64,000 nt of DNA from Escherichia coli (GTDB lineage: Bacteria; Pseudomonadota; Gammaproteobacteria; Enterobacterales; Enterobacteriaceae): NCBI RefSeq assembly GCF_041886205.1, contig NZ_CP169029.1, one strand, 5' to 3'. Under the pieces are notes generated by a model, which saw only the letters and a program-made list of their open reading frames with translations, had not been told where the DNA came from and ran no database searches. Shown here piece after piece: positions 17,028 to 50,709 of this stretch. Position numbers and translations under genes: made by a program. Position 1 is the first letter of the stretch, and the number at the start of each line of letters is the position of its first letter.

Positions 17028-17058
17028 CAAAATGCCCGATCGAGGATCGGGCATTTTT
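17028..17058. terminator. bidirectional terminator between eda and purT
   Basis: ATGCCCGATC-GAG-GATCGGGCAT hairpin flanked by A- and T-runs. Confidence 0.7.
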
Positions 17059-20090: not shown

Positions 20091-20271
20091 TTCCGCTCTC
20101 TGGATAGCCTGAAGTTGACTATTTCGGGCTATCCAGAATCGCACAGCCATTTGAACAGGCTGATTTTCTCTGTCTGCATAACATTCGATATCCGCGCCAT
20201 TACCTGTCATCATCTAAGCAATGACTCCCCTGTTTCGCTTGCATCCCCGGTGAGTTTTGCCACCCTTATAA

Positions 20272-36370: not shown

Positions 36371-36376
36371 TATCAA

Positions 36377-36406
36377 TCAGGCACAAGAAATTGTGCCTGA
36401 TTTTTT
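36377..36406 (+). terminator. intrinsic terminator after prc
   Basis: TCAGGCACAA-GAAA-TTGTGCCTGA followed by TTTTTT. Confidence 0.75.
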
Positions 36407-37458: not shown

Positions 37459-37491
37459 AAAAAGCGCGTCCTGATCGACGCGCTTTTTTTA
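37459..37491. terminator. bidirectional terminator between htpX and yebQ
   Basis: AAAAAGCGCGTC-loop-GACGCGCTTTTTTT. Confidence 0.75.
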
Positions 37492-39830: not shown

Positions 39831-39839
39831 TGAGAGTAA

Positions 39840-39877
39840 GAACCTGTCGGAATATCAAACAGACAGGTTCTTTATTT
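39840..39877 (+). terminator. intrinsic terminator after kdgR
   Basis: GAACCTGTC-loop-GACAGGTTC followed by TTTATTT. Confidence 0.65.
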
Positions 39878-40876: not shown

Positions 40877-40890
40877 TCCTTCCTCAATCT

Positions 40891-40920
40891 TGAGTAACCC
40901 CGTCGTTGAAGGGTTACTCA
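40891..40920 (+). terminator. perfect 10 bp stem-loop after yebO (no clear T-run)
   Basis: TGAGTAACCC-10 nt loop-GGGTTACTCA. Confidence 0.4.
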
Positions 40921-41544
40921 ATTCATCCTGATTATACGCACTGCCATGGTGCAACTGCTTCAAATTAAAACTCTGGTCTGACTTCAAATAATTATCATAT
41001 TATTTATTTGCGTAACGGGATATCAGAAAAAGATATTTTCCTCATTAATTTATTAGGATGTTTACATCGGATTTGTGATTAAGCGTGGTATTATTTATTA
41101 GCGAAACGTTTCTCTCTTGATTTTTTGCTCATTCATCAATTTTTCTTATTTTAAATTTTCAATCCCTTTGGGGATTGACTTCTCTTTAGGGTAATTGATA
41201 GCCGTTAACTGACTGTTTTATGAGAAAAAGTGATATAACTTTTTATTCATTGCATAGCAAAAAATGTGATATTGCACGCACTATGTAATAACTTCTCCCA
41301 CTGGCCTGGAACAACTGAACTTATTGAACTATGTTAGAAACTACGCCAGTTTAAGTATCTGCCTGAACTGGCAAGGTTAAGCACAATGATATATCGGCGC
41401 GTATTCCGTTGCATAAGTGTGCAAAAAAAGTGGAAGACGTATCGAGATTTGTGCGTCTGATCGAGACATGTTTAAAAATGGCTTGCCATAATTAACGTTG
41501 TATGTGATAACAGATTTCGGGTTAAACGAGGTACAGTTCTGTTT

Positions 41545-47088: not shown

Positions 47089-47550
47089 TTGCTACCTCCT
47101 TTATTATCGTTAACACCTCAACGTGCCAGATGTATTTTTGAATCGTCGTCCACAATCGAATCGATTCAGATAAGGGCTACAACCAAAAACCCCTGCGTTT
47201 CGCGATTTATTTTAGATATCGAAAAAATTATTTTATGTGATGAAGATCCGTAATTTAACTTTCGATTAGCAGAAATTTCGAAAGGTAAAATATCCTTATC
47301 ACATTCGTTTGCAAAGGAAGGTAAATCTTTGCCAAATCAGAGGCGTCTCTGATATGTTTAACTCCCGTTTAACAACCATGGAGTATAGGGCAGTAGCCCG
47401 CAGTATGGATCGTCACCGACGTCATTTCAGCATCAGGCCTTTTAACGCCTGCCTTTCTGGCATTCTATGCCGCACCTTTCGTTTGCATTTTGTCGTTACG
47501 CCTGCATTATTTTTGGCGTCGAATAGCTATTCCTTAAGCAGGAGCTTGTC

Positions 47551-49107
47551 ATGGAATTCTTAATGGACCCCTCAATTTGGGCGGGGCTACTCACGCTTGT
47601 TGTTCTCGAAATTGTGCTGGGTATCGATAACCTGGTCTTCATCGCCATTCTTGCTGACAAACTGCCGCCAAAACAACGCGATAAAGCGCGTTTGCTGGGA
47701 TTATCACTGGCGCTGATTATGCGTCTGGGGCTGCTGTCGCTGATTTCATGGATGGTCACGCTGACCAAACCGCTATTTACCGTTATGGATTTCTCCTTCT
47801 CCGGACGCGACCTGATTATGTTGTTCGGGGGGATATTCTTGCTGTTCAAAGCAACAACCGAACTGCATGAACGGCTGGAAAACCGCGATCATGATTCCGG
47901 CCACGGTAAAGGCTACGCCAGTTTCTGGGTGGTCGTCACACAGATTGTCATCCTTGACGCCGTCTTCTCATTGGATGCGGTAATTACTGCAGTAGGGATG
48001 GTTAACCATCTGCCGGTGATGATGGCGGCGGTAGTGATTGCGATGGCGGTTATGCTGCTAGCATCGAAACCGCTGACGCGATTCGTTAACCAGCACCCCA
48101 CGGTGGTGGTGCTCTGTCTGAGCTTCCTGTTAATGATTGGTCTGAGTCTGGTGGCAGAAGGTTTCGGTTTCCACATTCCGAAAGGTTACCTGTATGCCGC
48201 GATTGGCTTTTCGATCATCATCGAAGTGTTTAACCAGATTGCGCGTCGCAACTTTATTCGTCATCAGTCGACTTTGCCGCTGCGAGCGCGTACTGCCGAT
48301 GCCATCCTGCGTTTGATGGGCGGGAAACGTCAGGCCAATGTCCAGCACGATGCCGATAACCCGATGCCGATGCCGATCCCGGAAGGTGCATTTGCCGAAG
48401 AAGAACGTTACATGATAAACGGCGTACTGACGCTGGCGTCGCGTTCTCTGCGCGGGATCATGACGCCGCGCGGTGAAATAAGCTGGGTTGACGCTAATCT
48501 CGGGGTCGATGAAATCCGCGAGCAACTGCTCTCTTCACCGCACAGTCTGTTCCCGGTATGTCGCGGTGAACTGGATGAAATCATCGGTATCGTACGTGCT
48601 AAAGAACTGCTGGTGGCGCTGGAGGAGGGCGTTGATGTGGCGGCGATTGCTTCGGCGTCTCCGGCGATTATCGTCCCGGAAACCCTCGATCCGATCAACC
48701 TGCTGGGCGTGCTGCGTCGTGCTCGCGGGAGCTTTGTTATCGTGACCAACGAGTTTGGTGTGGTACAAGGTCTGGTCACACCGCTGGATGTGCTGGAAGC
48801 GATAGCTGGTGAGTTCCCGGATGCTGACGAAACGCCAGAAATCATTACCGACGGTGACGGCTGGCTGGTAAAAGGCGGTACAGATTTGCATGCCTTGCAG
48901 CAGGCGCTTGATGTTGAGCACCTTGCCGATGACGATGATATCGCGACGGTCGCGGGCCTCGTGATCTCGGCAAATGGTCACATTCCCCGTGTGGGCGATG
49001 TGATTGATGTAGGGCCACTGCATATCACCATCATTGAAGCCAATGATTATCGTGTTGATCTGGTTCGCATTGTTAAAGAGCAACCGGCGCACGATGAAGA
49101 TGAGTAA
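47551..49107 (+). CDS. yoaE: TerC-family membrane protein with CBS and CorC/HlyC domains
   Basis: 518 aa ORF. Confidence 0.9.
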
Positions 49108-49110
49108 GCG

Positions 49111-50709
49111 TTAACGTAACGGCATAATGGGTGTGATATGTCCATTATGCCGGGCGGGCGGCGGTTGGCTGCCCGCCAGCCATTTAGGAAAATCACGTAG
49201 TGGCATCGGCTGTGCGTACAAATACCCTTGCAAAATATGGACGCCATGACGGCGCAAATATTTCGCCTGTTCTTGCGTTTCCACACCCTCCGCCACCAGT
49301 TCAATATTCAGTCTTTGCCCCAGTGCGATGATGATATCGGTCACCGTCGAGTTAACCGCGTCAGAACCTATAGCTGCGGTAAATGACTTATCAATTTTCA
49401 GCACGTCAGGACGTAATGTTTCAAGCCAGGAAAATGAACTGTTGCCGGTGCCGAAGTCATCAATCGCCAGTTTGACGTTTTTACGATGCAGCTCGCGGGC
49501 AATACGATAATCAACATCCAGTAAGGCATCGCGTTCGGTGATTTCGAGGATCAGTTGCTGAATCGGGTGAGCGCTAAACCAGTACTGATTGAGATCTTTT
49601 ATCAGCACACCACGGCGAAAATGGCTGGGTGCGACGTTAATGCCAACATGAAACTGACTACTCATTGGGAAAACATGGCGCTGACGAATGGTTTCTGCCA
49701 TCACATAGCGGGTCAGTGGCACAATTAAATGATGTTCTTCCGCGATAGGAATAAACACATCCGGTGAAATCCAGCCCTGACGCGGATTGTTCCAGCGCAG
49801 CAAAATCTCTACACCAATACATTGCTGGCTGCGCGCATTAAGCAAAGGCTGACAGAACAATTCGAACTCATGTTGCGCCAGGCCCAGATTGATTTCGCGG
49901 GAAAAGCTCATCCGGTAAGCGGTCGCCAGCCAGGCGATGTAGCCCACCAGTAAACTTAGCAGCACCGCCAGCGGTAATTGTGTTGGAAGATAGTGCCATG
50001 CCAGCGCCGTAGCCCCCGGACCATTAACGTTAATGGTAAAAGGAAAGCGTTGCGAAGAAACCTGATAGTTTTCATTGTCTTCAGGTTGCGGAAGGGAATC
50101 TACCAGCCCATTACCATAGAGCAAATGCCGTTTGTCCACCGTCAGGCTGGCGCTACTGATTTGCGGCAGTTGTGGCTCAAGGAGCATTGCCGTCAGTAAG
50201 TCGATGTTAATCATCTCCATGACCCCAGCATTGCTACTGCCCGCTGCAGGCGTCCATTGAATCAAAACCGGACTGCATTTAATCAGGGCACGGTCGATCG
50301 TCAGGCGTAAAAGTGGTTGCGGTGCAGGAAGTTCAGCCAGAATGTCCACGACGGGCACATTGCGATAACCAAAAATGCTGGAGCAATAAAGTGTGCCGTC
50401 TTGCACCAGGCCAATGGATCGCACAGTTTGGAGTTTTGCCGCCTGTTTACGTAATGGCAAATGGGCGACAGAGCAGGGCAGACCAATCAGCGGAAGCAAG
50501 ACTTCGCTACCTGCCTGTAGGGGAAGCAGTACTTTATCTAATTCCTCTACAGCGTGATTGGCGAATTGTACTACCCGTTGTTGATTTAAGTTACGCTGTG
50601 AAATAAATCGCACGCTCAGGGTCGAAGCGAGCGTAACGAGTGCGCAAATCGTACAAACAATCATTCGATTACGACGATAGGTTTTAATGATCCGTTGTGC
50701 TTTTTGCAT
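49111..50709 (-). CDS. pdeD: c-di-GMP phosphodiesterase (CSS-motif sensor + EAL)
   Basis: Start set at MQKAQRIIKTYRR (532 aa); EAL-domain ELTE motif (written EITERD in this protein). Confidence 0.85.
   Translation of the reverse strand: MQKAQRIIKTYRRNRMIVCTICALVTLASTLSVRFISQRNLNQQRVVQFANHAVEELDKVLLPLQAGSEVLLPLIGLPCSVAHLPLRKQAAKLQTVRSIGLVQDGTLYCSSIFGYRNVPVVDILAELPAPQPLLRLTIDRALIKCSPVLIQWTPAAGSSNAGVMEMINIDLLTAMLLEPQLPQISSASLTVDKRHLLYGNGLVDSLPQPEDNENYQVSSQRFPFTINVNGPGATALAWHYLPTQLPLAVLLSLLVGYIAWLATAYRMSFSREINLGLAQHEFELFCQPLLNARSQQCIGVEILLRWNNPRQGWISPDVFIPIAEEHHLIVPLTRYVMAETIRQRHVFPMSSQFHVGINVAPSHFRRGVLIKDLNQYWFSAHPIQQLILEITERDALLDVDYRIARELHRKNVKLAIDDFGTGNSSFSWLETLRPDVLKIDKSFTAAIGSDAVNSTVTDIIIALGQRLNIELVAEGVETQEQAKYLRRHGVHILQGYLYAQPMPLRDFPKWLAGSQPPPARHNGHITPIMPLR

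Follow-up and report, generated by a model that had tools for sequence, protein, structure and literature searches.

The DNA considered here is a 64-kb window of the Escherichia coli chromosome (all coordinates are positions in this window), and the subject is a pair of adjoining stem-loops at the junction of the genes yoaE (mgpA) and pdeD (yoaD). The two genes are convergent, with stop codons that lie 3 nucleotides (nt) apart: the TAA of yoaE occupies 49105-49107, and the stop codon of pdeD occupies 49111-49113 (TTA on the plus strand, TAA on the minus strand). In 5420 of 5426 complete genomes, a 501-nt segment at the junction is found at 95-100% identity, with annotation as yoaE and pdeD. 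The features of the junction itself are as follows.

yoaE (mgpA), 47551 to 49107, plus strand: coding sequence for a cation-transport protein of 518 amino acids with TerC, CBS and CorC_HlyC domains (open reading frame translation, Pfam and RefSeq annotation of matching loci).
pdeD (yoaD), 49111 to 50709, minus strand: coding sequence for a cyclic di-GMP (c-di-GMP) phosphodiesterase of 532 amino acids with a CSS motif and an EAL domain (open reading frame translation, Pfam and annotation).
Codons of the PdeD C-terminal tail, 49114 to 49173, minus strand: GSQPPPARHNGHITPIMPLR, residues 513-532, kept in 59 of 80 species (translation and AlphaFold2).
Hairpin 1, 49120 to 49152, plus strand: stem of 11 perfect base pairs (bp) (repeat search, folding and covariation).
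Hairpin 2, 49153 to 49177, plus strand: GC-rich stem of 10 bp, including one G.U pair, with a 5-nt loop (repeat search, folding and conservation).

The inverted repeat GGCATAATGG/CCATTATGCC occupies 49121-49130 and 49142-49151, and one more C-G pair is formed at 49120/49152, which gives the perfect arms CGGCATAATGG (49120-49130) and CCATTATGCCG (49142-49152), complementary at 11 of 11 bp and separated by an 11-nt loop. A preliminary description of this DNA had placed the end of yoaE at 49107, the end of pdeD at 49111 and an inverted repeat at about 49121 to 49152 inside the last codons of pdeD; the gene ends are borne out by the sequence and by the RefSeq annotation of identical or near-identical loci, and the repeat is found where it was described. 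Hairpin 1 begins 12 nt past the yoaE stop codon, within the last 14 codons of pdeD. It spans codons R520 to P531 and is in phase with them, CGG-CAT-AAT-GG (R-H-N-G) standing opposite CC-ATT-ATG-CCG (P-I-M-P). As plus-strand RNA, three G.U pairs and one U-A pair are added to the perfect stem, and the resulting structure has 15 bp, a 3-nt loop and a folding energy of -18.7 kcal/mol (z score -3.8). The 11-bp repeat exceeds chance: eight perfect inverted repeats of at least 11 bp with a loop of 3-20 nt are present in the window, and 0.24 would be expected from shuffled sequences.

Hairpin 2, which is absent from the preliminary description, directly adjoins hairpin 1. Its arms, GGCGGGCGGC and GCTGCCCGCC, code for AGS opposite PPPA of PdeD, and its folding energy as plus-strand RNA is -24.1 kcal/mol. 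An alternative, longer register of this hairpin (49147-49162 paired with 49168-49183, 81% complementary) overlaps the 3′ arm of hairpin 1 and would compete with it. Both hairpins fold on the plus strand, where the 111-nt region has a z score of -4.7, and together they make a module of 58 nt in E. coli and of about 57 nt in S. enterica subsp. arizonae. The tail codons of pdeD hold both hairpins except for the outermost pairs of the 3′ arm of hairpin 2 (49174-49177, in the Ala511 and Leu510 codons). None of 4227 Rfam covariance models matches the module; the best score, 18 bits against a gathering score of 74 for a microRNA model, is a sub-threshold chance hit. A repetitive extragenic palindromic (REP) sequence, a bacterial interspersed mosaic element (BIME) or another mobile repeat was considered and ruled out, since the sequence occurs at a single place in each of 5422 E. 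coli genomes and lies inside a coding sequence.

The part of PdeD that is encoded opposite the hairpins lies beyond the EAL domain, which ends at residue 501 of 532 according to Pfam. In an AlphaFold2 model built with 31 orthologues, the last helix covers residues 504-511 and the confidence measure (predicted local distance difference test) falls to 62, 34 and 30 over the final three blocks; the 20-residue tail beyond the EAL domain is thus predicted to be disordered. Its conservation was followed in 80 Enterobacteriaceae loci retrieved via YoaE, nearly all of which carry pdeD convergent to yoaE. A recognisable tail, W-L-A-G-S-x-P-P-P-A-R-H-N-G-H-x-x-P-x-M-P-L-R, is present in 59 species, from genera that include Escherichia, Citrobacter, Salmonella, Enterobacter, Lelliottia, Leclercia, Kosakonia, Phytobacter, Cedecea and Buttiauxella, and in most of the tail-bearing species the stop codons are separated by 0-6 nt. 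Other ends of PdeD were also seen. In Klebsiella pneumoniae (locus L047, 2527-2590), the protein closes with a repetitive acidic tail, ESESESESEGESETTE, the PPPARHNGH tail is missing and an intergenic GC hairpin follows. In three loci of Trabulsiella and Pluralibacter (L056, L065 and L070), pdeD continues past the yoaE stop codon, so that the convergent genes overlap by 22 nt and a PdeD tail ending in SSSSS is coded opposite the acidic C-terminus (DEDE or EEE) of YoaE.

The conserved tail could in principle be explained by constraint at the protein level alone, the tail being a functional peptide motif and the palindrome incidental to it. Consistent with such a constraint, the reading frame is kept and the peptide is conserved with some synonymous variation: the last Arg of the tail has an amino-acid identity of 0.88 and a codon identity of 0.43, and the prolines are invariant despite differences among their codons. 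Against it, the mean amino-acid identity (averaged from per-codon values) is about 0.76 for the stem codons and only about 0.45 for the loop codons, and the tail is the part predicted to be disordered. Synonymous-codon identity, which is 0.56 in the tail and 0.50 in the EAL domain and so barely higher in the former, does not discriminate.

Folding of the real sequences is more informative. The 66-nt tail window is the most stable of about 160 tiled pdeD-antisense windows in 56 of 59 species (median z score -5.3), and in nearly every species the real tail forms a more stable fold than 200 sequences recoded synonymously for its peptide, with z scores of about -2 to -5. Pairing was also followed in a MAFFT alignment of 23 sequences of the Escherichia, Citrobacter and Salmonella type, which was not fitted to the structure. 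In this close clade, 93.9% of the cells pair, compared with 36-55% when the partners are slid, and eight pairs are altered on both sides; the covariation score is 0.219, compared with 0.160 for shuffled alignments, and is reached by none of 500 shuffles. The length differences in the alignment are all multiples of 3 (3-nt insertions) and are confined to the two loops. The nucleotide sequence of the tail region is therefore shown to be under selection. This bears out the claim of the preliminary description that the DNA is constrained both as coding sequence and as RNA structure, on the grounds of arm covariation in the close clade, the recoding test and the in-frame length changes restricted to loops. 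The comparison of hairpin pairing with pdeD codon changes, which the same description had suggested, gives a divided answer: the arms co-vary in Escherichia, Citrobacter and Salmonella, and significance is not reached in the more distant set or in all 59 sequences.

Variation within E. coli points in the same direction as the recoding test with regard to the peptide. A 78-nt segment covering the site is identical to the window in 641 of 5422 genomes, and most of the others carry 1-3 differences. Among nine sampled strains, the stems are invariant save for one allele (AR13438), a minor one in which T49128C changes I to V in PdeD, and position 49132, a synonymous Thr site in a loop, is T, C or G. 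In two sampled genomes, a deletion of 4 nt (CGGG) where the hairpins meet (window about 49150-49157) shifts the frame of the PdeD tail and adds 33 residues; the 90-95% identity band to which these genomes belong comprises 277 of the 5422 records. According to the predicted fold of this allele, hairpin 1 is intact and hairpin 2 has 7 bp. In one carrier, E. coli NDM_11.16372 (locus L002, 401-474), pdeD is labelled a frameshifted pseudogene by the Prokaryotic Genome Annotation Pipeline. Because the deletion frameshifts the tail and yet both hairpins persist, the tail peptide is dispensable in nature. Together with the folding advantage over synonymous recodings and the compensatory double changes, this allele makes an explanation by protein-level constraint alone extremely unlikely, and the conserved peptide (PPPARHNGH..P.MP) appears to be largely a by-product of the RNA structure. 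A larger rearrangement was seen in one genome, E. coli ESBLEC_HM24 (locus L003, about 400-410), in which a deletion of about 130 bp (window about 48995-49132), apparently lying between short repeats similar to GTGTGGG and GTGAT, fuses yoaE at about codon 484 to the hairpin 1 loop; the 5′ arm of this hairpin and the stop codons of both genes are lost.

The strand on which the structure acts can be judged from wobble pairs, because a G.U pair on the plus strand corresponds to a C.A mismatch on the minus strand. In the Escherichia, Citrobacter and Salmonella set, the counts of G.U versus A.C on the plus strand are 39:1 in hairpin 1 and 30:3 in hairpin 2 (69:4 in total), whereas the ratio expected from base composition alone is, by our own estimate, about 2:1. 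Several of the changes that form G.U pairs alter the amino-acid sequence of PdeD, R to Q and M to I being examples. The excess of G.U over A.C indicates that pairing is maintained in the yoaE-sense RNA, and not in the pdeD mRNA or in the DNA. Loci that have lost pdeD agree with this assignment. In Intestinirhabdus alba (L040) and in a second locus (L069), sdaA directly follows yoaE and a stem resembling hairpin 1, GGCAT(A/C)(G/A)CGG..., is retained past yoaE; in the latter, the hairpin has an A-run upstream and a T-rich tail. In Klebsiella-type species with a tail-less pdeD, a canonical hairpin followed by a T-run lies on the yoaE strand in the 33-90-nt gap between the genes. These observations support the view that the structure belongs to the yoaE-sense transcript.

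The opposite assignment, in which the structure acts in the minus-strand pdeD mRNA, or is a bidirectional 3′ element for both transcripts, has some features in its favour. In E. coli, the 11 perfect pairs of hairpin 1 can form on the minus strand as well (-16.9 kcal/mol, z score -5.2), where the moderately U-rich sequence UUACGUUAA comes next (UUUCGUUAA in Citrobacter), and bidirectional terminators between convergent E. coli genes are reportedly common, a finding ascribed to Ju et al. in 2019. This assignment is nevertheless very unlikely. The wobble asymmetry leaves many minus-strand stems with C.A mismatches, and the hairpins lie upstream of the pdeD stop codon, where they would be unwound by every ribosome. 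Moreover, the replacement terminators in tail-less species face yoaE only, and the hairpin is kept where pdeD is gone.

The preliminary description proposed that the hairpin could terminate yoaE, which is taken here to mean an intrinsic terminator, and that transcripts extending well past 49160 would argue otherwise. If the hairpins were an intrinsic (Rho-independent) terminator of yoaE, polymerase would be stopped at about 49152-49185. Their stability and GC content, their position 12 nt past the yoaE stop codon and the canonical terminators found at the same position and on the same strand in tail-less species are compatible with this function, as are the stem of L069 with its A-run and T-rich tail and a weak CAUUU after hairpin 2. 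Neither hairpin, however, is followed by a U-tract, taken here as about 5 or more U in the 8 nt directly past the stem: the plus-strand tails are GGGCGGG (GGGCGGGC) after hairpin 1 and AGCCAUUUAGG after hairpin 2. A scan for the terminator consensus gave no call at the hairpin site. Published data also place termination further downstream, in a region with the two features below.

C-rich, G-poor stretch, 49220 to 49340, plus strand: yoaE-sense, pdeD-antisense and untranslated RNA with 32-33% C, 17-18% G and a GC skew of -0.3; a candidate Rho-utilisation region.
Peak of the Rho score, approximately 49355 to 49363, plus strand: from PMC7815308 and coordinate mapping, at the low resolution of 800-nt score windows.

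The second of these is listed by Adams et al. (2021, PMC7815308, supplementary file 2) as a region of Rho termination, in the class antisense to pdeD, at MG1655 1899777 (minus strand, the sense of yoaE). In DirectRNA-seq, coverage fell from 51 upstream of it to 9 downstream when bicyclomycin was absent and was 103 and 100, respectively, when the drug was present, and the Rho score was 5.5 (p = 1.2e-6; PMC7815308). By the verified mapping, MG1655 1899777 corresponds to window position ~49359, which is about 250 nt downstream of the yoaE stop codon and about 180 nt downstream of hairpin 2; in the intervening RNA, C makes up 33% and G 17% at 49220-49300. Transcripts running well past 49160 are thus present in the published bicyclomycin data (PMC7815308, window ~49359). 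The nearly equal coverage on both sides of ~49359 in the presence of bicyclomycin argues against appreciable Rho-independent termination at the hairpins, within the low resolution and read depth of that experiment. Termination by the hairpins themselves is accordingly unlikely, and the claim of the preliminary description is not supported in that form. Because there is no U-tract and a Rho region lies about 250 nt downstream, the hairpins are more likely to be exonuclease-blocking 3′ stem-loops than an intrinsic terminator, and the label 'terminator' is better replaced by 'structured 3′ end of a Rho-terminated yoaE transcript'.

On balance, it is probable that the tandem stem-loops form the structured 3′ end of the yoaE mRNA and stabilise a Rho-terminated transcript rather than terminate it. 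In the model that we favour, RNA polymerase would read through both hairpins because neither has a U-tract after it. Rho would then load on the untranslated, C-rich RNA at about 49220-49340 and terminate transcription near 49360. Subsequently, 3′-to-5′ exonucleases would shorten the transcript as far as the base of the hairpins and be blocked there, by which the mature 3′ end would be both set and protected. The module of about 58 nt may also persist as a small stable fragment, the possible E. coli counterpart of StyR-291 of Salmonella Typhi. Since the ends of the two genes are only 3 nt apart, the last 20 codons of pdeD have the hairpins overprinted on them.

Stem-loops of this kind have been described. 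In the work of Dar and Sorek (2018, PMC6061677), Rho-dependent transcripts are reported to have steady-state ends just past stable stem-loops that lack a U-tract; some of these stem-loops lie within downstream coding regions, they are followed by an enrichment of C over G, and they protect against PNPase and RNase II. Compared with this class, of which they are probable members, the yoaE hairpins are alike in being stable, free of a U-tract and of an upstream A-tract, and placed just past a gene and inside the coding region of the next, with C exceeding G downstream and a Rho-dependent read-through region further on. They differ in that two hairpins stand in tandem, lie in the last codons of a convergent gene and are kept across many genera. 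With intrinsic and bidirectional terminators, the yoaE hairpins share a site just past the stop codon between convergent genes as well as size and folding energy; unlike them, they have no U-tract on either strand and no flanking A-tract, and Rho-dependent read-through has been published. REP and BIME stabilisers are likewise GC-rich palindromes at the 3′ ends of genes that are able to block 3′ exonucleases, whereas the yoaE hairpins are single-copy, lack the REP consensus and are coding, not extragenic.

The small fragment is of interest with respect to StyR-291, a 61-nt antisense-class cDNA clone that was catalogued as a candidate non-protein-coding RNA of Salmonella Typhi (Chinni et al., 2010, PMC2943607). 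E. coli K-12 was scored as having a homologue, and neither S. Typhi nor E. coli gave a positive Northern blot (PMC2943607); inclusion of StyR-291 in a complementing plasmid had no effect on the mgpA phenotype tested (PMC12421838). StyR-291 resembles the hairpin module in location, in length (61-nt cDNA compared with 58 nt) and in the scored K-12 homologue; it differs in having been catalogued only as a Northern-negative antisense cDNA clone, with neither a structure nor a function put forward for it. An independent small-RNA promoter was considered and ruled out, as no promoter-like site is found in 48600-49700. From its location and size, we infer that StyR-291 is probably the decay-resistant 3′ end of the yoaE/mgpA transcript and not an independent small-RNA gene.

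Alternatively, the yoaE 3′ region, or a fragment of it of about 60 nt, might act as a cis-antisense regulatory RNA that pairs with the 3′ end of the pdeD mRNA and alters its stability or translation. The cDNA cloned at this site in S. Typhi and the homologue scored in E. coli would fit such a role, complementarity to pdeD is full by construction, and the convergent gap of 0-6 nt is kept in most tail-bearing genera. On the other hand, the Northern blots were negative, the mgpA phenotype tested was unaffected by StyR-291, the tolerance of G.U in intramolecular pairing points to selection on the fold and not on intermolecular pairing, and the hairpin is kept in species that lack pdeD. A cis-antisense role is therefore quite unlikely; if true, it would couple cation export to c-di-GMP turnover, and it would be compatible with stabilisation of the yoaE transcript as an added role. 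A stronger combined proposal, in which the PdeD tail is an imprint of the yoaE-transcript hairpins and not a protein feature, and the stable 3′ fragment is a cis-antisense link between expression of YoaE/MgpA and that of the c-di-GMP phosphodiesterase, is highly improbable.

Several observations weigh against a structured, Rho-dependent 3′ end of yoaE as proposed above. With regard to conservation, the Enterobacter, Lelliottia and Cedecea set, analysed in a fixed register, shows 63.5% pairing in hairpin 1 and covariation not above that of shuffled alignments, and RNAalifold found no consensus in all 59 sequences. Hairpin 2 takes different registers in different clades, including another one in the distant set. 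Counts per clade and folding per sequence were substituted for a 59-species consensus because of these differences in register and because RNAalifold gave no usable consensus; in the distant species, strong hairpins are found at the same place, some with another sequence, for example GAAGGCCGGG/CCCGGTCTTC in Cedecea. With regard to the strand, the difference in folding energy between the plus and minus strands (mean 5.6 kcal/mol, in 53 of 67 species) is for the most part also seen in recoded controls, and it is because this difference is largely compositional that the counts of G.U and A.C were used for the strand question. The E. coli allele AR13438 (T49128C) produces a C.A mismatch on the plus strand that would be a G.U pair on the minus strand. 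With regard to termination, the Rho score comes from 800-nt windows with few reads, and a further effect of bicyclomycin is spurious antisense transcription. Curated Term-seq 3′ ends (PMC7815308) include none in MG1655 1899700-1900099, an absence that the low expression of yoaE makes uninformative, not contrary, and the SMRT-Cappable-seq supplements contain no entry for a yoaE 3′ end. Finally, StyR-291 is Northern-negative, and its overlap with the hairpins is deduced from location and length, not from its sequence (FJ746409).

One DNA stretch at this junction serves two genes on opposite strands, as RNA structure for yoaE and as codons for pdeD. What is unusual is that, in many genera, the C-terminal peptide of the convergent gene appears to have been both moulded and maintained by an RNA structure on the antisense strand. 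The PdeD tail, and the annotation of pdeD as a frameshifted pseudogene in some E. coli genomes, should be reread accordingly, and allele replacement or recoding at the 3′ end of pdeD may alter the stability of the yoaE mRNA. The current understanding of termination is unchanged; the element is of a known kind in an unusually constrained place.

Two further features belong to the outer ends of these genes. A small leader open reading frame, yoaL (window ~47405-47563, corresponding to 1006-1164 of locus L001), overlaps the start of yoaE and has been suggested to up-regulate the translation of mgpA (2025 MgpA paper, PMC12421838). At the other end, a strong Rho termination region has been reported at window ~50693 (MG1655 1898443, plus strand there, in the sense of pdeD), with a score of 9.6 and p = 3.6e-21 (Adams et al., 2021, PMC7815308). 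This region lies on the sense strand, 16 nt inside the pdeD open reading frame, and suggests that either read-through from sdaA or the pdeD transcript itself is prematurely terminated.

The other seven perfect repeats of at least 11 bp in the window lie at 17029-17057, 20099-20137, 36375-36402, 37459-37488, 39838-39872, 40890-40921 and 54643-54675. The repeat at 20099-20137 has a long loop of 17 nt, and several of the seven are flanked by an A-run and a T-run in the manner of bidirectional intrinsic terminators.

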